Positions 27,759 through 44,122 of a stretch of DNA of 45,749 nucleotides are shown one piece after another; position 1 is the stretch's first letter; every line of letters begins with the position of its first letter. The stretch lies in IMG/VR virus record IMGVR_UViG_2534681762_000010; one strand, written 5' to 3'. Under the pieces are notes generated by a model. The model ran no database searches and was not told the origin of the DNA. It saw only the letters and a program-made list of their open reading frames with translations. The DNA comes from a virus. Its lineage: Duplodnaviria; Heunggongvirae; Uroviricota; Caudoviricetes. The translations under genes were made by a program, and so were the position numbers.

Positions 27759-28252
27759 TACTCCTCCTGCTGTAATTCCTCCTCATCATCCGCACCTGCT
27801 TCAGTCACCCGCAGGGCTATCTGATCGCGCAGATCATCAATAATGGACTGAACACGGCTCACAGCGGCAGGCTGCAGACCGCAGTCACGTTCAAGAATAT
27901 CCGGTAATGTCTCCAGCACCTGCACGACCGCTTTTGCCCAGATGGCAAACTCCCGTCTGACATCACTGGCCGGAATGAGTTGTGCCGTTTCCTGTTCGAA
28001 CTTAAGACGCTCACGTTCAGACTGATACCAGGCTTTGCGCTCATGCGCGTCCATTTCGCCTTCTGCAACCGGCGGTGGTAATGCCAGAAATGCCGACACA
28101 ATATCAACCACCCGATAAAGCTTGAGGTTGCTTTCATGCCCCCCTGCAACGGGTAGATTTTGCAGCCTTGCCGCAGCAGTCTGGCGATGTACACCTGACA
28201 ATGCCGCCAGTTGACTGATATTCAGCGTCAGATTTTTTAACTCTCGATCCAT
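27758..28252 (-). CDS. terminase small subunit (Nu1-like, N-terminal HTH)
   Basis: 164 aa, HTH ISQLAALSGVHRQTAAARL, acidic C-terminus; immediately upstream of terminase large subunit. Confidence 0.7.
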   Translation of the reverse strand: MDRELKNLTLNISQLAALSGVHRQTAAARLQNLPVAGGHESNLKLYRVVDIVSAFLALPPPVAEGEMDAHERKAWYQSERERLKFEQETAQLIPASDVRREFAIWAKAVVQVLETLPDILERDCGLQPAAVSRVQSIIDDLRDQIALRVTEAGADDEEELQQEE

Positions 28253-28423
28253 ACCCGCTCCAGAATGTTTTAAACATGCATCTTGCGAACAACTTTAGGC
28301 AAACGGTGTTAGTGATGAACAAAAAACAATCAGAATCGACACCATAAAAATAAAACAACTGTAATATCAATCAATTACAGTAGTGGTGATGACGAATAAA
28401 ATTTCAAAAACTAGCCTTTTTCC

Positions 28424-28442
28424 GCGACGCTCCCGCCCCGTG
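28424..28442 (-). other. candidate cosN (cohesive end site)
   Basis: minus strand reads CACGGGGCGGGAGCGTCGCGGAAAAA versus lambda ACGGGGCGGCGACCTCGCGGGTTTT; about 180 bp upstream of Nu1-like start as in lambda. Confidence 0.45.
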
Positions 28443-28804
28443 GCAGGGACCCCCACTGGGAGGACCCGACAGCCTGACAACCGTGACGAGCATCTGAAAC
28501 AGAGCTTTACATAATGGCATGGGGATAATTCAGAAGGACATCACAGCATGCCCACACAAATTAGTGTGAGTGTCCTGTTTCTTACTACGCGCAGGACTGA
28601 CGAGCATGAGGGGAAAATACGCGAACCGAAATGCCTTATCTTCAGAAATGCAGCCGGCATCCGAACTGGACGATATTGTAAATTCACCTAAATACGAGGC
28701 ATTGCTGTAGTTGAATTGCAGTACTGTATTAGCCTTACAGTGACAGAATACGATATTGACTCTGTCACTTGTGAAATGGTCAGAATGGTTAGCAGTTATG
28801 GTGA

Positions 28805-29011
28805 TCAGTCAACCACCAGGGAATAATCCTTCGTATTCTTATCGTGCTTTACTAACGCGGCCTCAATTGCCCTGAATGCTTCCAGAGATACTTGATGTTC
28901 TATACATGCAATTACAACATCCGGGTAACCCATCGAAATGGTGCTATTAAGCATAGTTTTTACACGAACCTGCTCCTGGGAGGGGGCATCAGTGTATTGA
29001 TCTTTATGCAT
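28805..29011 (-). CDS. conserved lambdoid late-region small protein, function unknown
   Basis: 68 aa; DNA recognisably similar to the lambda region between Rz and bor. Confidence 0.5.
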
Positions 29012-29306
29012 TTTGTCGCTCCATTCGTTTGCTCTTCACTTGCGGCTAAAAATATAACGTCAAATCACTCAGCATGAAAGAGTGAAAGTTTCAGCGCGTT
29101 TCCCTTACATAATCTGTCGTTTGTATTCTCTTCAGGCATACCGGAAAGACTAGGTATTGTCACACAACCAATACCATCGACAATCGAGATTTATATCTAT
29201 TCGGTAATGTTTAAATATAACAAAACCCCGTAAAAACGAGGTTTATGGGTAATTTGTATTGTTGAATAGCATCTGATGAGAAATTGATGCTAATACTATA
29301 AACATG

Positions 29307-29480
29307 CTAGATTAAATCAATCTTGATATCATAGCTTTCAAGACCAGTCATTTTTTCCCGTGCAGTAAACTGGATACTGGTAACTTCTTTCCCGGTCTTT
29401 TTCTTAAGCTCAATGATTTTTTTTGTTATATATTCAGAAATATCTGCTTCTGTTTTTGTTTTTAACTCTTCAATGTTCAT
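29307..29480 (-). CDS. gnsB: Gns-family protein (GnsB-like)
   Basis: MNIEELKTKTEADISEYITKKIIELKKKTGKEVTSIQFTAREKMTGLESYDIKIDLI; GAGG SD. Confidence 0.65.
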   Translation of the reverse strand: MNIEELKTKTEADISEYITKKIIELKKKTGKEVTSIQFTAREKMTGLESYDIKIDLI

Positions 29481-29652
29481 CATTTCCTCTTTTAGTCTGT
29501 TATGACTGTCCTGGTACACAGTAGTGTCAATTATATGGAGCAAACGTATAAAAGATAAGATGAAACATCGCAATAATCAACATACGACGGTCTAAATTTC
29601 ACACAAACAGATAAAGATGATTATCATTTATTATCAATGCATTAGAATCAAA

Positions 29653-29883
29653 TCAATTCAAGAGTCTCATTGCTGCTTCCAGAATTTCTTCTGAAGTTAC
29701 ATGTCGATCCGCTGCTACATAAATGACTTTATGATCTCCGGTCAGAGATGGAAACCCTGCAGCCATTACAGTGAGGTGTGTTGTTTCGCCATTTGGATAT
29801 TCACGCATGATGGTGTTAACTCCGGTCATCACTGGCACTACCATTGCTGGTTCAGAGTTAAAAAAAACTATTATTTTTTTCAT
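29653..29883 (-). CDS. hypothetical small protein
   Basis: 76 aa from ATG 29883; weak SD. Confidence 0.35.
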   Translation of the reverse strand: MKKIIVFFNSEPAMVVPVMTGVNTIMREYPNGETTHLTVMAAGFPSLTGDHKVIYVAADRHVTSEEILEAAMRLLN

Positions 29884-30154
29884 AATGTTACCGTAATATG
29901 TGAGTATCCATCGACTAGACACTAAGCAAAAAAGCTCCCGAAGGAGCCTTCATTTTCACTTTCTTAAATCTAACGACAGATGGCTAACATTTAAGTATTG
30001 TGAAATATTATCAAATGTAATCATCATTGATTTACAAAAGATACATTTTGCCCCGAAAGGATTTCTGTCAGAAACATCAAAAGATGATGTTCTATACTGA
30101 GAACCATGGCAACACGGGCATCTGAAGTGAATATGGTTTGTAATATTTTCTACC

Positions 30155-30367
30155 TCAAAGTGCCACTACATGAACAGCTGCAGGGCCTTTAGGTCCGTTC
30201 TCAATACCAAATTCGACTTCCTGATTCTCAGTTAACGTTTTGAAATCGTTGCTCTGAATAGCTGAGAAATGCACAAACACATCTTTGCTACCATCTTTCG
30301 GCGTGATGAAACCAAAACCTTTTTCAGGGTTAAACCATTTCACTAAACCAGTCATTTTGTTAGACAT
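30155..30367 (-). CDS. cspI: cold-shock protein (CspI/CspB-like)
   Basis: [23 protein letters not shown]... with RNP motifs; long AT-rich 5' UTR upstream. Confidence 0.75.
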
Positions 30368-30730
30368 CATTATTACCTTTTGAAGAAGTTAGCCCTTGGG
30401 CAGAATGGTCCGAAAAAAAATATCAGAGAGAAAAACCAACAAGGAAATCTCAAGAGGTACAAATAATAAAATTATAACAATGACTGCTTCAGATAATTTT
30501 GTAACAAACCAGAACACCATTAACGCATGATTAACCAACCATAGCAAGGATTACTTTTGTAAAGAAAAACACACGAATGAAACAATAGCTTTATTTATTA
30601 ATAAAACGTGTCATTCTGTCTAATGACCTTTTATCTTACCCTTAAGATTTCAAGGATTTTGACTCATGGAAGAGTCCTTTTTATTTAAATTTCACATTCA
30701 GCGCTAAAAATAATCCGATTTAATATTAAT

Positions 30731-31754
<1,024 letters not shown>

Positions 31755-31758
<4 letters not shown>

Positions 31759-32066
31759 AGATATTTATGATGAGGACGCTCGTGCTTATTGGCAGGATTT
31801 TCAATCTTAAAGGAGTACTGATGCTGCAGATAAGACTCAACTTTTTCTGACAATTTTTCTGCTACTTCCAGGAAGACTTGCCGGACGCTCATTCTGGCTG
31901 CTGCCTCATAAAACTCCAGCGCAGCTCCTTCAACACGGTCCATGGCGACATCCAGGCCAAAAATTTCACCGTCAAAGCGTTCTTTGTCCTGTAAGGCTAC
32001 AGTTACCGTAACTTTATTCTCAAAATTACGGACTCCTTTCACAACCAGTTCATAGTCTTGAGTCAT
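31755..32066 (-). CDS. YdfR-like protein between holin and lysozyme
   Basis: 103 aa; position identical to ydfR in the Qin lysis cassette. Confidence 0.5.
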
Positions 32067-33571: not shown

Positions 33572-34045
33572 ACAGCGAATCAGATCAAATAAAACGCACA
33601 TTTGTTAACATTTACACAAAGTCTGCGTGGGATATTCTGAAAGAATATCCATAATGTGGAGAGAATCTATTGAAGTGCATGGTGCCGGGTGCCTCCCGGT
33701 GAATTCAGTACCAGCACCTGAATCCGCGATTATCCCATATACCTACTCGCTGATTGCCCCTCCGCACAGGGGGATTCACCATGCCAGTTTCTTTTAACAA
33801 ACTCCCCGCAAACCAGAGAACAGTCAACCGCCTGAATTGTGAAGTATTTAAAAATTTCTCCCGCTAACTGATACCCGGCTAACAGTCTGGCGTTTTCTTT
33901 TTCAGCAACGGGAAAGCAACAACCACCACACCCGCCACCAGCACACCGTCAGCCAGCACTGACATTATCCGGCTGCTGCAATGCCATTCACAAAAACAGT
34001 AAGCAATCACTTTTTACCGTAACAGGTGATAATCCAGATATGTAT

Positions 34046-34509: not shown

Positions 34510-34586
34510 TGGCGCGCTGTACTGGATTCGAACCAGTGACCGATTGCTTAGAAGGCAATTGCTCTGTCCGGCTGAGCTAACAACGC
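34510..34586 (-). tRNA. tRNA-Arg (anticodon UCU)
   Basis: GCGTTGTTAGCTCAGCCGGACAGAGCAATTGCCTTCTAAGCAATCGGTCACTGGTTCGAATCCAGTACAGCGCGCCA folds as cloverleaf; anticodon loop CTTCTAA; 3' CCA encoded. Confidence 0.9.
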
Positions 34587-34686
34587 TGAATACCGATAAT
34601 GGACCGCCATCGGGGACCCGCCCCCGCACCAACAACCCTGTTATCGTGTCGTCTGCTCTTCCTGATAAGCTAATGGCGGTTTGTGA

Positions 34687-34762
34687 TGGTGGCCCTTGCT
34701 GGATTTGAACCAGCGACCTGGCGATTATGAGTCGCTCGCTCTCACCACTGAGCTAAAGGGCC
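34687..34762 (-). tRNA. tRNA with anticodon CAU, most like tRNA-Ile2 (lysidine type; ileX/ileZ-like), alternatively tRNA-Met
   Basis: GGCCCTTTAGCTCAGTGGTGAGAGCGAGCGACTCATAATCGCCAGGTCGCTGGTTCAAATCCAGCAAGGGCCACCA; close to E. coli ileX. Confidence 0.9.
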
Positions 34763-37161: not shown

Positions 37162-37551
37162 TTACCTCCAGATGCGTTGCTGGAATGTGTGGGACGGACG
37201 CGGTGGGCGTTCGGAGTAAGGCAATCTGACTGAGATTATCCAGTGACGGTAGTCGAGGCTAAGGGCTTTTTTAACCTCGTATCCGCGCCTGCGGTAACAC
37301 TGAATTATCCATTCAGCCTGCTCTTCAGTGCATGGTGGATGCTGGAACCAGTCCGATTTGAATGCATGAAAACGCCGTCCGCACCTGCTGGCAAAGACGG
37401 CAGAATCATCAGAATTGTGTAATTTGGTATCGTGCGCCATCGGTTGTCTCTGCTGGCGCAGCAGGTGCCAGTTGTTCAGGCTGGCGTATAAAGTATAAAT
37501 AAACTGGTTCCAGTGTAAAGCCCCTACATTAATGGAATAAAAGTCAAACAA
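37162..37551 (-). CDS. hypothetical nin-region protein (possible start at internal Met 37440)
   Basis: 129-codon ORF abutting the DUF968 gene. Confidence 0.35.
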   Translation of the reverse strand: MFDFYSINVGALHWNQFIYTLYASLNNWHLLRQQRQPMAHDTKLHNSDDSAVFASRCGRRFHAFKSDWFQHPPCTEEQAEWIIQCYRRRGYEVKKALSLDYRHWIISVRLPYSERPPRPSHTFQQRIWR

Positions 37552-37705
37552 CAGATTGTTGGGATAAACACAACGCTTATTATTAAAAGCGATTAGATAA
37601 ATTAAATTTTAATGTTATGCAATTTTACCAGATCACCATAACATCTCTTTTGAAACCACCGAAACAACAACCATATCAATATTGATTATGTTAAAGTGAG
37701 TAAAT

Positions 37706-37792
37706 ATGGAAAACAACAAATCTGCACATTACGCTCCTTTTTTATCTGTGATACTTTTTGTTTTATGCTGTGTGTGGGCATTATTTTTATAA
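37706..37792 (+). CDS. small hydrophobic ORF (28 aa), hypothetical
   Basis: ATG 37706, MENNKSAHYAPFLSVILFVLCCVWALFL; in AT-rich island next to hokD. Confidence 0.2.
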   Translation: MENNKSAHYAPFLSVILFVLCCVWALFL

Positions 37793-37800
37793 AAATATTT

Positions 37801-37829
37801 ACAGATAAAATAAACCCGCCGAAGCGGGT
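37801..37829 (-). terminator. intrinsic terminator downstream of hokD
   Basis: ACCCGC-cgaa-GCGGGT hairpin followed by TTATTTTAT on minus strand. Confidence 0.5.
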
Positions 37830-37898
37830 TAAGTGCGGGTGCATTGAGGATGCCTGACACATCAGAGGTGGCGAGGGATTTCTCCCTCGCCAAGTCTC

Positions 37899-38054
37899 TT
37901 ACTCCTCAGGTTCGTAGACTGTGAAGACAGCGACCTCCGTCTGGCCGGTTCGGATTCGTACCTCGCAGAGGTCTTTCCTCGTTACCAGTGCCGTCACTAT
38001 GACGGTTAAACAGATGACGATCAGGGCGATTAACATCGCCTTTTGCTGCTTCAT
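37899..38054 (-). CDS. hokD: Hok-family type I toxin (HokD/RelF-like); in-frame upstream extension to 38111 is mok-like
   Basis: MKQQKAMLIALIVICLTVIVTALVTRKDLCEVRIRTGQTEVAVFTVYEPEE; AAGGAG SD. Confidence 0.85.
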   Translation of the reverse strand: MKQQKAMLIALIVICLTVIVTALVTRKDLCEVRIRTGQTEVAVFTVYEPEE

Positions 38055-38640
38055 AGCCTGCTTCTCCTTGCCTTTCGGCACGTAAGAGGCTAACCTAGAT
38101 TTGCCGTTCATAGATTGAGCCTCAGATTAATGTTAAGCGTCTTGCAGGACGCGTAATGTTAACTGGGGCTTTTCTCTATCTGCCTTTGGTGTTCATGCCT
38201 GAGACAGATAGCCTCAAGCACCCGCAGCCATTCTACTTAACTCCCGTCACCTGGCCAATATAAAATCAATCAGAAAGGCGATCCATAAGAACAACAGCAA
38301 GACAATAAATTGCCATTACAGCTGCAATAGCCAGCGCACATTTGAGAACCAGCACGACAACCTCCTGTATTGGACGTACACCAGTCCTGATAAATATGAG
38401 GCTCTCTCATCATTGATGAGATACAACTATTGGGTATAGTTTCTGTGATTTTGTTCTGTAGAAATGGAACACAACAACCAGTAACCACCAGCGATTCTTT
38501 AAATACGCCAAATCCGACGCAAGCTAACCTTCTAGTCCGCTTTGGGCGAAGACCGGACGTTCGATAGGTGTGAACTAGTAACTTTAAAAACATTTAATTA
38601 CCAGTAAAAAAACAAGAATATACTATCACTTTTCCAATTT

Positions 38641-39666
38641 TTAATTACCCTTATCAATTTTAAGAAATACATTTCCAATCTCATCAGAATAATCCTGTAT
38701 TATTTTTGAAATGACGGCATGATCAATGGTTGGTTTTAAGAATAAAAGTGTCACAGTAATCTGCATCAAACTAATAGCAGTAGCATGGGCTGGATCAGCC
38801 ATTCCTGAATCACTTTGCCCGATCAATAATATATCATCACCAGTTTCACAGAGACCAAGCCTATTTCTCATTGCCTTGGAACCGGTGTGTACATTCTGAC
38901 TCGCCCACTTATAATAAGGGCGCATGTGTTCTAACTGAACATCTTTCTCAATAGCTCCAAACCCCACTTTATTATGGTTAGGGAAAATATAAGATGCCCA
39001 CCCATAATTATCTGCATATTTTTTGCCGTATTTTTTTATTAATAGATCAAATTGAACTTTACACTCAGCTATTTCTTCAATAGTTGGACCTTTTGCTTCT
39101 AACCGGTGCTCGTACTTTTTGTGTTCCAACATTCCAGTATATGAATCAACCACTTCATGGTAGTAAAAGCGCTCAGCACACTCTTTTCCATGCTTTGCTA
39201 TAAACATAGCTGTGGCTGCTACCTCATGAAGTGCTCGCCATCTCGCTTGGGCAGCATCTGCAAATCCATTCTTTAAGAGACACAAAATTTCGTTGGCGAT
39301 GTGGCAAGCTCTTGCGTGATGCCGAACGACTAAATCAAAAACCACATCCTCTTCAGAGGCAGCTTGTGGTCTATAAGAACGATTGAACTCTTCACCGGAC
39401 TCCGTGCATATCACTATAAGTGTTTCGAGCAAATCAAAAGCCTCTGCCCATCTTGAAATATTTCTCTCAACAAATTCATCACAAAGAGAACGATGTTCTC
39501 TAAGCATTGCATTGGCCGAGCCAATAAGAGATTTTTTAACGACAATGGCTATTTTGGGAATTAGGTTATTAATTTCTTTTTCGATATCAGCGTCACCAGA
39601 TAAATCAAGTCTCTCTTTTAAAAGGCTGTCTATGTGCTCAAGCAAAATATTATGAAAAGTATCCAT
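38641..39666 (-). CDS. orphan 341-aa protein of unknown function in low-GC island (candidate accessory/defence gene)
   Basis: single long ORF, AT-rich codon usage unlike flanking phage genes; first ATG 39666 (track start 39678 is TTG); no recognisable catalytic motif beyond two R-x4-6-H spacings. Confidence 0.6.
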   Translation of the reverse strand: MDTFHNILLEHIDSLLKERLDLSGDADIEKEINNLIPKIAIVVKKSLIGSANAMLREHRSLCDEFVERNISRWAEAFDLLETLIVICTESGEEFNRSYRPQAASEEDVVFDLVVRHHARACHIANEILCLLKNGFADAAQARWRALHEVAATAMFIAKHGKECAERFYYHEVVDSYTGMLEHKKYEHRLEAKGPTIEEIAECKVQFDLLIKKYGKKYADNYGWASYIFPNHNKVGFGAIEKDVQLEHMRPYYKWASQNVHTGSKAMRNRLGLCETGDDILLIGQSDSGMADPAHATAISLMQITVTLLFLKPTIDHAVISKIIQDYSDEIGNVFLKIDKGN

Positions 39667-39893
39667 GTCATATCTCAATAAGTTTTAAATCCATGTGGCA
39701 CACCCATAATATAAAAATAAACAGCATGCCAGTCTAAGTCTGGCTATTTGTATATCATATCACCTGAAACATTGACAGATGTAACCCACCAAAATATTAT
39801 CAATGACCACTCTTGGCACAAAGCGAACAACCACGCTAGCTCTACCTTGTGCCATGAAAATGTCAATGCATATCTGAACTAATGCCCTTTAAT

Positions 39894-40319
39894 CTAGTAA
39901 CGTCTAAAATACCTAACATTTCCCTGATAAAATGCCATAATGCGCTGCATAACTTCGCTCTTCCGGCACTCGCGACAGATTATGTTTAGACAACTATCGT
40001 AGCGACGTATTTCTCCGTCAGGTAATGACCAGATAAGGTCCGGATCAACCGCAGATGGTTTCTTCAGCTTTGCCCTTGAGAGCTTTTTACGGGCATTTTG
40101 CCAGTCCTTACGCGCCTGTTCAGACGGGAATAACCCGTAACCAGAGTTGTATACATCGCCACTGGCAACCAGCTCTCTGGCCAGAACGCTCATCAGATAT
40201 CTTGTTGCCCCAGTTTTAGTTTCCAGTTGTCGTAACGTCTCGCGCCCACTCTGGCGTACGAGTTCAACAACCTGCCCTTTAATTTTTTCCCGCTCTTCTT
40301 GTGTAAAAACTTTTGCCAC
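39894..40319 (-). CDS. hypothetical replication-region protein with C-terminal Cys cluster
   Basis: 141 aa downstream of O-like gene where P/DnaC-like loaders usually sit; not an AAA+ protein. Confidence 0.45.
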   Translation of the reverse strand: MAKVFTQEEREKIKGQVVELVRQSGRETLRQLETKTGATRYLMSVLARELVASGDVYNSGYGLFPSEQARKDWQNARKKLSRAKLKKPSAVDPDLIWSLPDGEIRRYDSCLNIICRECRKSEVMQRIMAFYQGNVRYFRRY

Positions 40320-40359: not shown

Positions 40360-41337
40360 TTACCCCCTGAAGCCCGGCGGAATTTCAGTGTCCGGTTCAG
40401 AAATGTGATTCACGCAACGCTGCGCAGGCGAACGCCCCAGGCGGATAACCAGTTCATCCCATTTTTCCCGGAGTTTTGCCGGACTCATGATGTTTTTTAC
40501 CCAGAACGAATCCCGCTGGAGACGCCCAAACATTTCACAAATTTGTCTGTGAGTTCTGCCATCCAGCATCCGCATTGTGCGAACGTCATTGGCCCATGCT
40601 GTCCAGTTGGGTTCTTTCGGTCTAGTGATCTCGCCATCATCGCTGGCCGCCTGCTCGTAAAGACTCACGATTCGTCCCCAGATCCACTGTGCGCACACCA
40701 AATCTTCCTGACTTCCCCACTGGCGTTTTTTCGCACTGAACACAACCGCGTCAGGGTGTCGGGTTAAAAAATCCTGTTCAGCCGTCTGCGGGTCCGGTTG
40801 CGAAGCGTCCGGACAAGAAGATCTTTTATCTGACGGATCAGGTTTTAATACTGACGGATCGGGGTCAATCATCGCCCCCCTAATCGGCAGTTTTTTATCA
40901 ACAGTTGATCCATCAAAATTTGACGGGTCAACCGTTGAGGGGTCAATATTTGACGGGTCAACTGTTAACGGGTCATTTTTTGCCGGGCTAATTTTTCTTT
41001 TCGGTTTATATGACTCACGCGCCGCCGCCGCAGCTGCTTCGAGTTTTTCCACATTAAGCCGATAGATATTGCTTACATTACGCCCACCGACCTTACGCTC
41101 TTCCTTCGTCAGCCAGCCCTCTTTCGCCAGTTCTGCAATAGCCGATTTCACTGTGGATTCACTTCTTGCACCGATCTGACGCCGGATAGTTTCAATGGCA
41201 GGCCATGACACGCCCTCGTCATTGCTGTAGTCTGCAAGACGGGCCATAACCGCCACCCTGGATAAGATCATGCCGGTGAAGGCGCACCCTTCCCAGACAA
41301 GACCATGAAGCTTGCTGCTCATAAAACCCCCGAACAC
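40360..41337 (-). CDS. replication initiator (lambda O-like) with iteron-encoded linker
   Basis: N-terminal winged-helix-like domain, repeated DPSTVDPSN linker encoded by DNA iterons, C-terminal domain. Confidence 0.7.
   Translation of the reverse strand: MFGGFMSSKLHGLVWEGCAFTGMILSRVAVMARLADYSNDEGVSWPAIETIRRQIGARSESTVKSAIAELAKEGWLTKEERKVGGRNVSNIYRLNVEKLEAAAAAARESYKPKRKISPAKNDPLTVDPSNIDPSTVDPSNFDGSTVDKKLPIRGAMIDPDPSVLKPDPSDKRSSCPDASQPDPQTAEQDFLTRHPDAVVFSAKKRQWGSQEDLVCAQWIWGRIVSLYEQAASDDGEITRPKEPNWTAWANDVRTMRMLDGRTHRQICEMFGRLQRDSFWVKNIMSPAKLREKWDELVIRLGRSPAQRCVNHISEPDTEIPPGFRG
40921..40995 (-). repeat. origin iterons: four to five tandem 15-bp repeats TGACGGGTCAAYYGT inside the initiator gene
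   Basis: tgacgggtcaaccgt / tgaggggtcaatatt / tgacgggtcaactgt / taacgggtcattttt / tgccgggctaatttt; further copies at 40831 and 40852. Confidence 0.6.
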
Positions 41338-41344
41338 CGTGCTT

Positions 41345-41770
41345 TTAGTGCATCACCACAGCATTCCCTGCCGGGCCGCCGCGATTCATCTGGTCATACA
41401 AAACAACCGCTGACGCAACAAAATCATCGACATCCTTCACCAGCCGATCCCTCCGTTCGACGATCTCACGGTAATATTCAGAACTGTGGCTGCGCATACG
41501 GGCCACCAGCAAAGGCGGCATCGCCTTTTCGATCGCCGGTAACAGAGCCTGCATTTTTTCAACAGCATCAGGGGTGTCTTTATCCAGCCAACGGAAAATT
41601 TTCTGGGTATTACGGGCCAGGGCTTCCGGATGGCTGTCGTCGTACAGTTCAGGGAACGTCATCCCCAGTTCGAAATAAGTCCGGGCTATTTCAGCTGCAG
41701 GAACTTTCTCACCATCAGGGTATGCCCAGGCATTCATCGCCATGCGGATGTGCTCATGTTTGATTTTCAT
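41345..41770 (-). CDS. YdaT-like protein (Rac-type early-right gene)
   Basis: 141 aa, MKIKHEHIRMAMNAW...; occupies the cII position after the Cro-like gene. Confidence 0.55.
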   Translation of the reverse strand: MKIKHEHIRMAMNAWAYPDGEKVPAAEIARTYFELGMTFPELYDDSHPEALARNTQKIFRWLDKDTPDAVEKMQALLPAIEKAMPPLLVARMRSHSSEYYREIVERRDRLVKDVDDFVASAVVLYDQMNRGGPAGNAVVMH

Positions 41771-44069: not shown

Positions 44070-44122
44070 TTTCTGGTGACGTTTGGCGGTATCAGTTTTA
44101 CTCCGTGACTGCTCTGCCGCCC
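44070..44122 (+). ncRNA. dicF: DicF small RNA (ftsZ translation inhibitor)
   Basis: TTTCTGGTGACGTTTGGCGGTATCAGTTTTACTCCGTGACTGCTCTGCCGCCC followed by TTTTT, matching the 53-nt DicF sequence as I recall it; located just upstream of dicB as in Qin. Confidence 0.7.

Follow-up and report, generated by a model that had tools for sequence, protein, structure and literature searches.

The locus and its prophage setting

We analyzed a DNA stretch of 45,749 nucleotides (the window; IMG/VR virus record IMGVR_UViG_2534681762_000010), in which a gene for a 341-amino-acid (aa) protein of the DUF5677 family lies between a DUF977/Ren-like gene and a hok toxin gene. The window was identical to a stretch of Escherichia coli strain 33F4 and contained a Qin-type lambdoid prophage that is nearly complete and has its insertion site between ydfJ and rspB. 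Its early-right operon is on the minus strand and starts with a Cro/YdaS-like regulator and a YdaT-like protein. After the DUF977 gene, the operon continues with the 341-aa open reading frame (ORF), hok/mok/sok, a 92-aa ORF, DUF968, RusA and the Q antiterminator. The features are listed in Table 1.

Table 1. Features in and around the cargo slot (window positions)
Feature	Position	Strand	Basis
Replication protein	40360-41430	-	early-right operon, before the DUF977 gene
DUF977/Ren-like gene, upstream boundary of the cargo slot	39894-40319	-	Pfam DUF977, E 4.8e-29; phrog_142 'Ren-like exclusion protein'
Stem-loop (10 bp) immediately 3' of the DUF977 stop codon; slot-bounding backbone element	39814-39854	-	RNA fold
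CGCTTTGTGC motif, 5' cassette edge	39816-39825	-	in inverse orientation to the copy at 38538-38547
Mobile cassette (promoter-like region, gene, 3' hairpin), ~1.3 kb	38534-39828	-	blastn
Putative sigma-70-like promoter (TAGACT, 17 nt, TATATT)	39708-39736	-	consensus scan
DUF5677-family gene, 341 aa, WP_000379313.1	38641-39666	-	ORF list; Pfam PF18928; phrog_27456 over full length; RefSeq name
3' hairpin of the cassette (GTCCGGT, 10-nt loop, AGCGGAC; 7-bp stem)	38535-38558	-	read from the sequence
Backbone block between cassette and sok	38224-38562	-	96% identity with phage Tritos; missing in THO-006
hok mRNA leader/sok region	38049-38223	-	Rfam RF01794, 110 bits vs gathering score 59
mok frame overlapping hok, 70-aa ORF	37899-38111	-	ORF list; phrog_251 'MokW-like'
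hok toxin gene (HokD, 51 aa)	37899-38054	-	50/51 residues identical to K-12 HokD; Pfam HOK_GEF, E 6.4e-22
Terminator-like hairpin, 3' end of hok mRNA	37813-37830	-	terminator scan: 7-bp stem, 5 G-C pairs, then T run

A sequence-only reading of this DNA had described the region as a low-G+C island, and the deviation held up on computation. The guanine-plus-cytosine (G+C) content of positions 37560-39900 was 39.8%, compared with 49.6% for the whole window. The ORF-specific block (38598-39893, about 1.3 kb) had a G+C content of 37.7%, and only 4.7% of same-size windows were as low (mean 0.497, standard deviation 0.063). At third codon positions, the G+C fraction was 0.31 in the 341-aa ORF and 0.46-0.55 in the flanking genes. 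The island was uneven: the fraction was 0.50 in hok/mok/sok (37899-38223), 0.35 in 37552-37898 and 0.37-0.40 in 38224-39893. Two other patches of the window were equally deviant, one at about 500-2000 (the ydfJ/ynfT/ydfK prophage end) and one at 28000-30000 (cspI, rzpQ, rrrQ).

The 341-aa protein belongs to a large and widespread family

The 341-aa ORF starts with the ATG at 39666, a start that is kept in homologues. The Pfam model of DUF5677 (PF18928) matched its residues 112-274 with 118 bits (cut-off 27.1; E 5.7e-34), and all 121 scanned relatives likewise matched this model. The protein had been regarded as an orphan without an assignable family. That view was refuted by its DUF5677 membership, and RefSeq already names it 'DUF5677 domain-containing protein'. 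Both the family entry and the annotation of the protein thus predate this analysis, and neither is new. The Pfam model is confined to 166 central positions; in the clade studied here, conservation extends along all 341 residues. Literature searches for DUF5677, PF18928 and WP_000379313 returned two incidental mentions and no functional study.

A word-indexed search found 538 relatives. The first 120 were all about 340 aa long and 59-89% identical, and they included proteins of Salmonella, Pectobacterium, Providencia, Klebsiella, Vibrio, Colwellia, Sulfurovum, Nitrospirota and Desulfuromonas. Full-length relatives with 60% identity were present in Vibrio, Colwellia, Sulfurovum and Nitrospirota. 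A profile search against 1.84 billion cluster representatives placed at least 3,555 clusters (at 50% identity) in the family, 1,616 of them below E 1e-30. When one genome per species was scanned, at least 442 species carried a relative; many were Chloroflexota, and Bacillota, Planctomycetota, Thermotogota, one bacterium of the candidate phyla radiation (CPR) and one methanogen were also found. The family also occurs on plasmids, including haloarchaeal ones. About half of the distant members, mostly from Chloroflexota, had a length of about 420 aa, with some 90 additional residues at the N-terminus, and three family representatives were long fusions of 512-840 aa. Among 121 diverse members scanned at E<=10, no second Pfam family, HEPN or other, was detected, and the N-terminal extensions and the N-terminal parts of the rare long fusions matched no Pfam domain.

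Within E. coli, the gene was rare and clonal, being present in 73 of 5,426 complete genomes (1.3%) and at least 99% identical in all of them. Strains 55989 and APEC O78 (avian pathogenic E. coli) carry the identical protein. All 73 carriers keep at least 80% of the 2.6-kb stretch from DUF977 to hok, indicating that the gene occupies the same slot in each.

The gene is carried by a self-contained mobile cassette

The limits of the cassette were defined by blastn. The homologous DNA of a Salmonella plasmid-like contig (ParA, Rep3 and VapBC adjoining) extended from window position 39828 to 38534 with 89.8% identity. A Pectobacterium chromosomal islet, in which ParE adjoins the gene, matched from 39805 to 38546 (88.5%). 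A Providencia island matched from 39803 to 38533 (89.0%); there the gene lies between an integrase and a 545-aa deaminase that PADLOC identified as a dCTP-deaminase defence gene (E 1.3e-168). For phage Tritos, which has a different cargo, backbone homology ended at 38549 and restarted at 39793. The Klebsiella copy was found at the same post-replication position of a lambdoid prophage, and the Enterobacter copy at the cargo end of a satellite-like island with integrase, AlpA and D5 primase.

The cassette consists of about 140-165 nt of conserved upstream DNA, the gene, and about 105 nt of downstream DNA up to a hairpin. The promoter-like block was conserved in the E. coli, Salmonella, Pectobacterium, Providencia and Klebsiella copies, and the sigma-70-like site within it is a putative promoter of the gene. 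The 3' hairpin was kept at the cassette end in four genera, and it is also present beside the unrelated cargo of Tritos. The DUF5677 gene is a self-contained 1.3-kb cassette that was recently exchanged among prophage, plasmid, satellite-like and island contexts.

Divergence between the copies agreed with this. The synonymous divergence (dS) between copies of four genera was only 0.19-0.33, indicating recent horizontal spread. The ratio of nonsynonymous to synonymous divergence (omega) against orthologues of three other genera was 0.19-0.29 overall; such purifying selection indicates that the gene is functional. By region, omega dropped to 0.02-0.11 in residues 106-160 and reached 0.4-0.8 in residues 1-60. 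The strongest constraint thus fell on the two helices with the conserved motif described below, and the N-terminus was fast-evolving.

The edges of the cassette were inspected for traces of exchange. The motif CGCTTTGTGC marks the 5' edge, where the Salmonella homology also starts (39816-39825). The hairpin core CGCTTTGNGC is inverted at the other edge, and this pattern occurred four times in the window (0.57 expected). A 22-nt inverted repeat at the cassette ends was 77% matched, which is about the chance level in 3.3 kb. Taken alone, the inverted repeats do not exceed the chance expectation, and only the position and the count of the core motif are suggestive. In Providencia, a 15-nt direct repeat, CATTAGCTGACGTTG, brackets the insertion (contig positions 5853-5867 and 7162-7176). 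The terminal hairpin, the inverted CGCTTTGNGC cores and the Providencia repeat may be the footprint of exchange at hot-spot boundaries.

A 23-nt direct repeat (38575-38597 and 39894-39916, 74% identical) was considered as the island boundary and was rejected because its downstream copy lies within the cassette in all four genera; it is probably a chance match or a remnant.

The stem-loop right after the DUF977 stop codon is stable and was conserved in Tritos and THO-006 despite their other cargo. It may be a terminator of the tR2 type and shield the cargo slot from transcription initiated at pR. A near-consensus sigma-70 promoter-like site (TTGACA, 17 nt, TATTAT; 11 of 12 matches) was also noted on the plus strand at 39772-39800. 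It is antisense to the 3' end of DUF977, divergent from the cassette promoter, and spans the junction of cassette and backbone.

A defence hot spot lies between the Ren-like gene and hok

The equivalent interval was examined in ten other prophages and phages, and ten different cargoes were found between DUF977 and hok. The sequence-only reading had placed relBE at the equivalent position in Qin and had proposed a cargo hot spot; both points were borne out. In K-12 Qin, relB-relE lies directly upstream of hokD, and the cargo comprises relBE with ydfV and flxA. Other slots held QueH, a P-loop ATPase of the Sll1717 family, five small ORFs, or a 314-aa hypothetical protein; that of HannyBb held a methylase and a 228-aa protein. 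Several cargoes were defence systems recognized by PADLOC: an ATP-dependent nuclease (HEC-04/OLD-like) with a cytosine methylase (Dcm), a helix-turn-helix protein with a 216-aa protein (RmrA/RmrT, E 5.7e-107 and 1.4e-18), and, in Tritos, a 444-aa protein on the opposite strand (PDC-S15). These results identified the slot bounded by the DUF977/Ren-like gene and hok as a hot spot for defence cargo.

The hot spots of P2/P4 elements (PMC9122126) and of prophages (PMC9519451) likewise have a fixed backbone position and a rapidly exchanged cargo, much of which is defensive. The slot described here belongs to Qin-type lambdoid prophages and, in contrast, is not one of the P2/P4 hot spots. No account of the interval from DUF977/Ren-like gene to hok as a hot spot was found in the literature searched.

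The DUF5677 gene is a solo gene

No recurring partner was found in the contexts of nine different homologues. At 80 genome loci, 554 ORFs lay within four genes of the focal gene, and the largest homologous group among them was present in 4 loci. A conserved adjacent antitoxin, as expected of a type II toxin-antitoxin system, was thus not found; no neighbour family was present in more than 4 of the 80 loci. Some loci have small upstream ORFs, and these were mutually unrelated. An RNA partner was also sought. The flanks had no tandem repeats, no Rfam family except sok was detected even at E<=1, and the upstream leader of the gene folded no better than shuffled sequences (z -1.7). The DUF5677 gene is a solo gene.

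In the satellite-like island of Enterobacter hormaechei (contig positions 9200-11533), the gene was always followed by a gene for a 777-779-aa protein on the same strand, 165-170 nt downstream. A C-terminal SEC-C motif is the sole recognizable feature of this protein, and its gene is split in one genome. This gene could represent further cargo of the island, or else a partner at this location.

The adjoining hok/mok/sok locus belongs to the prophage backbone

The hok locus next to the cassette was complete. A Hok/Gef ORF, an overlapping mok frame, a sok/leader region and a 3' terminator, the features of a Hok/Sok type I system, were all present, which confirmed the earlier description of a hokD gene with a mok-like leader and terminator (Pfam, ORF list, Rfam and terminator scan). 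HokD here is 98% identical to the K-12 protein, whereas the mok and sok part is absent in K-12. In the alignment, hokD of K-12 Qin retains only about 15 nt 5' of the hok ATG and consequently has no mok start and no sok region; the 3' end of relE takes their place. The hok locus is found next to many different cargoes and therefore has no functional tie to the DUF5677 gene. It forms a type I toxin-antitoxin module of its own within the prophage backbone and is no partner of the DUF5677 gene.

The block between the cassette and sok is shared with Tritos and missing in THO-006, and for this reason it was placed outside the cassette. It contains a 29-aa hydrophobic ORF, MLVLKCALAIAAVMAIYCLAVVLMDRLSD (38266-38355, minus strand), whose GTG start lies 5 nt downstream of AGGAGG. 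The product could be a small membrane peptide or a toxin. The 28-aa form of this ORF had no NCBIfam match.

A predicted, possibly HEPN-like fold with a conserved RWRxLHE motif

The structure was modeled with AlphaFold 2 from a 39-sequence alignment (predicted local distance difference test score, 81.5; predicted template modeling score, 0.76). The model was all-helical, and the conserved segment 258-282 was of low confidence. The best structural match of the helical bundle was HEPN, whose domains are four-helix up-down bundles, but the resemblance is tentative: no Foldseek match in PDB or BFVD was below E 0.04.

Conservation was counted over 147 representatives with 33-55% identity. R144, E148, W223 and H260 were conserved in all 147, R142 and W143 in 146, E240 in 144, and H147 in 143, the other four having Tyr. 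E126 followed with 141, H117 with 132 and C121 with 131. Two R-x4-6-H spacings had been pointed out as weak hints of a HEPN-like RNase. One of them, RWRALH, proved to be a genuine family-wide R-x4-H (R142 and H147) of the Rx4-6H type that characterizes HEPN. The other, RHHARACH as an R-x6-H, was not conserved, as H122 varies. Judged from the hairpin geometry of the secondary structure, E126 and C121 on helix 108-132 should face R142 and H147 on helix 136-159. The modeled fold would thus be nearest to HEPN, and its RWRxLHE motif is nearly invariant. As the Arg/His/Glu site lies in a putatively HEPN-like bundle and the gene is found in a conflict context, our leading hypothesis is that the DUF5677 protein acts like a HEPN-type metal-independent RNase.

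A possible role in abortive infection

The reading that we favor, tentatively and with somewhat less than even confidence, is that the gene encodes a stand-alone, self-controlled, RNase-like sensor-effector of abortive infection that belongs to the DUF5677 family and is carried as an accessory ('moron') cassette. In the lysogen, the cassette's own promoter would drive the gene, and the product would be an all-helical, soluble enzyme that is normally inactive. Infection by another phage would switch the enzyme on, and RNA would be damaged, most likely by metal-independent cleavage at a site formed by R142, R144, H147 and E148 with E126, E240 and H260. The infected cell would then stop producing phage, which would amount to abortive infection or inter-phage competition by a single protein. 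Speculatively, the trigger might be recognized by the N-terminus, which evolves fast, and by the flexible but conserved segment 258-282. We infer the promoter activity, the RNase chemistry, the auto-inhibition, the trigger and the defence phenotype from the features described above and from the analogy that follows.

HepS (STM14_3211) of the Salmonella prophage Gifsy-1 is a solo HEPN anticodon nuclease of abortive infection. HepS is produced constitutively and does no harm before it has bound the tail-tip protein J of an infecting siphovirus. No partner gene accompanies it, and homologues occur in scattered bacteria (PMC13043305). The DUF5677 gene shares with HepS its solo state, a similar slot, a patchy spread and an R-x4-H motif, and with its own promoter-like region its genomic logic can be likened to that of HepS. 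The two proteins are unrelated in sequence, however, and the motif context differs (RWRxLHE in DUF5677). HepS homologues have at most 250 aa; the 341-aa protein studied here has, in addition, a large C-terminal region (residues 160-341). When all PDB sequences were searched with a profile at E<=10, no HepS entry was among the matches. HepS was also absent at the expected place in Gifsy-1 of strain LT2 (NC_010392), where a 200-aa candidate had no R-x4-H at position 100.

Several results weigh against a role of the DUF5677 protein as a HEPN-like defence RNase. No family of PADLOC-DB v2.0.0 matched the protein at E<=1, NCBIfam gave no match, and searches of PDB chains with the protein and with the 39-sequence profile returned only noise. 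Among 50,697 phage genomes, a single one carried a homologue, that of the SPbeta-like Bacillus phage SPR (29% identity). In the sole published test of a family member, a preprint, a distant Bacillota DUF5677 ORF and eight other candidates were cloned into Enterococcus faecalis and tested with six phages; five of the nine ORFs reportedly defended, and DUF5677 was not among them. Many distant homologues sit amid housekeeping genes. The 148 immediate neighbours from 55 distant genomes did include strong PADLOC matches (PD-Lambda-1, CBASS cyclase, viperin, PsyrA, SoFic, PDC-S31 and PDC-S35), six transposases, two FRG proteins and one LA2681-type HEPN protein, which, with no control set, is suggestive and not a measured enrichment. 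The motif itself also departs from that of known HEPN RNases, such as HepT toxins, Csm6/Csx1 and the abortive-infection (Abi) proteins AbiD/F, AbiV and AbiU2 (PMC3710099). In HEPN proteins, a polar N, D or H usually comes right after the motif Arg, the motif is located at the end of helix 3 or the start of the loop to helix 4, and the acidic residue of helix 2 is often within an Ex3[KR] motif (PMC3710099). Here, R142 is instead followed by the nearly invariant W143, and the motif lies 6-11 residues into helix 136-159 of the predicted model. No Ex3[KR] motif was seen in the DUF5677 protein, HEPN families of Pfam had no match at E<=10 in the 121 members, and the Abi/HEPN models of PADLOC had none at E<=1.

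The missing HEPN profile matches, the atypical motif position and the Trp after R142 would also be expected of a defence or conflict effector that is not a HEPN RNase. Its bundle would be only generically HEPN-like, and its Arg/His/Glu/Trp patch would perform other chemistry, for example metal-dependent hydrolysis or an action on nucleotides, DNA or protein. W223, E240 and H260 lie outside the motif helix, the conserved loop 258-282 is of low confidence, and H117 and C121, about 90% conserved, are one helical turn apart, all of which would fit such an enzyme. We regard this explanation as unlikely. The gene might instead encode an addiction or stabilization toxin that, like the hok/sok beside it and relBE in Qin, keeps a prophage, plasmid or island in the cell and is held in check by an unrecognized cis RNA or a very small protein. 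Toxin-antitoxin modules adjoin it in several genomes (hok/sok here, VapBC in Salmonella, ParE in Pectobacterium, YoeB in Kushneria), it occurs on plasmids, and promoter-like sites are present on the antisense strand. The 80 loci, however, had no conserved neighbour or small ORF, the flanks contained neither tandem repeats nor a known RNA family, and outside the coding sequence conservation extends over no more than about 165 nt upstream and about 105 nt downstream. An addiction toxin is quite improbable.

Two further explanations deny the gene a role in defence. The gene is oriented like the replication and nin genes and follows the Ren-like gene, so that pR transcripts under N antitermination would extend through it. 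It could thus be an early-right gene that benefits the phage in lytic growth (a nin-type accessory, host-takeover or counter-defence gene) and not a defence gene expressed in the lysogen. Yet it is present in no sequenced lambdoid phage, its frequency in phage genomes and in E. coli is as low as given above, most family members have chromosomal, plasmid or satellite contexts outside phages, and the cassette has its own conserved promoter-like block; we consider this very unlikely. An ordinary cellular protein, regulatory or metabolic, that hitch-hikes on mobile DNA would explain why some distant homologues are found amid housekeeping genes and why one homologue had no reported defence phenotype. 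It would not be expected to show a sparse and patchy distribution across phyla with 60% identity between classes, a recent cassette transfer (dS 0.2-0.3 between genera), repeated placement in defence hot spots and no conserved operon partner, and this is the least likely of the explanations considered.

A bolder proposal goes beyond the abortive-infection reading. DUF5677 would be a new, widespread family of single-protein sensor-effector enzymes of immunity, its RNase-type site (RWRxLHE, H260, E240, W223) would be only distantly related to HEPN or convergent with it, and the conserved terminal hairpin and the inverted CGCTTTGNGC motifs of the cassette, which spreads the gene among prophages, satellites, plasmids and islands, would serve a dedicated mechanism of exchange at the boundaries of hot spots. 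We find this proposal, taken as a whole, rather doubtful.

If the gene defends, a large and phylogenetically very broad family, with thousands of clusters reaching Chloroflexota, CPR bacteria and archaea, would be added to the single-gene immune effectors. The Ren-like-to-hok position of Qin-type lambdoid prophages could then be mined as a defence hot spot, as P2/P4 positions are. Present in nearly identical form in four genera and on four kinds of replicon, the cassette would be a concrete case of single defence genes moving between elements. The system is also tractable, with an identical protein in the well-studied strains 55989 and APEC O78, a 1.3-kb unit with its own putative promoter, and few invariant residues.

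Other features of the prophage

Between hok and the 92-aa ORF, a 458-bp interval (37441-37898) with 35% G+C is without an annotated gene; E. coli 55989 carries rem in the corresponding interval. An IS66-family insertion element, ISEc23 (tnpA, tnpB and transposase), lies within the lysis module at 29554-31970 and interrupts a DUF1327 gene between the holin and the lysozyme. Given this insertion, the prophage may be partly defective. The window also contains genes for tRNA-Arg and tRNA-Ile downstream of Q, the small RNA STnc100, and DicF (34510-34762; 33623-33813; 44071-44122). The phage-borne tRNAs would be relevant if the cargo gene encodes an anticodon nuclease like HepS, whose targets include tRNA-Ile.

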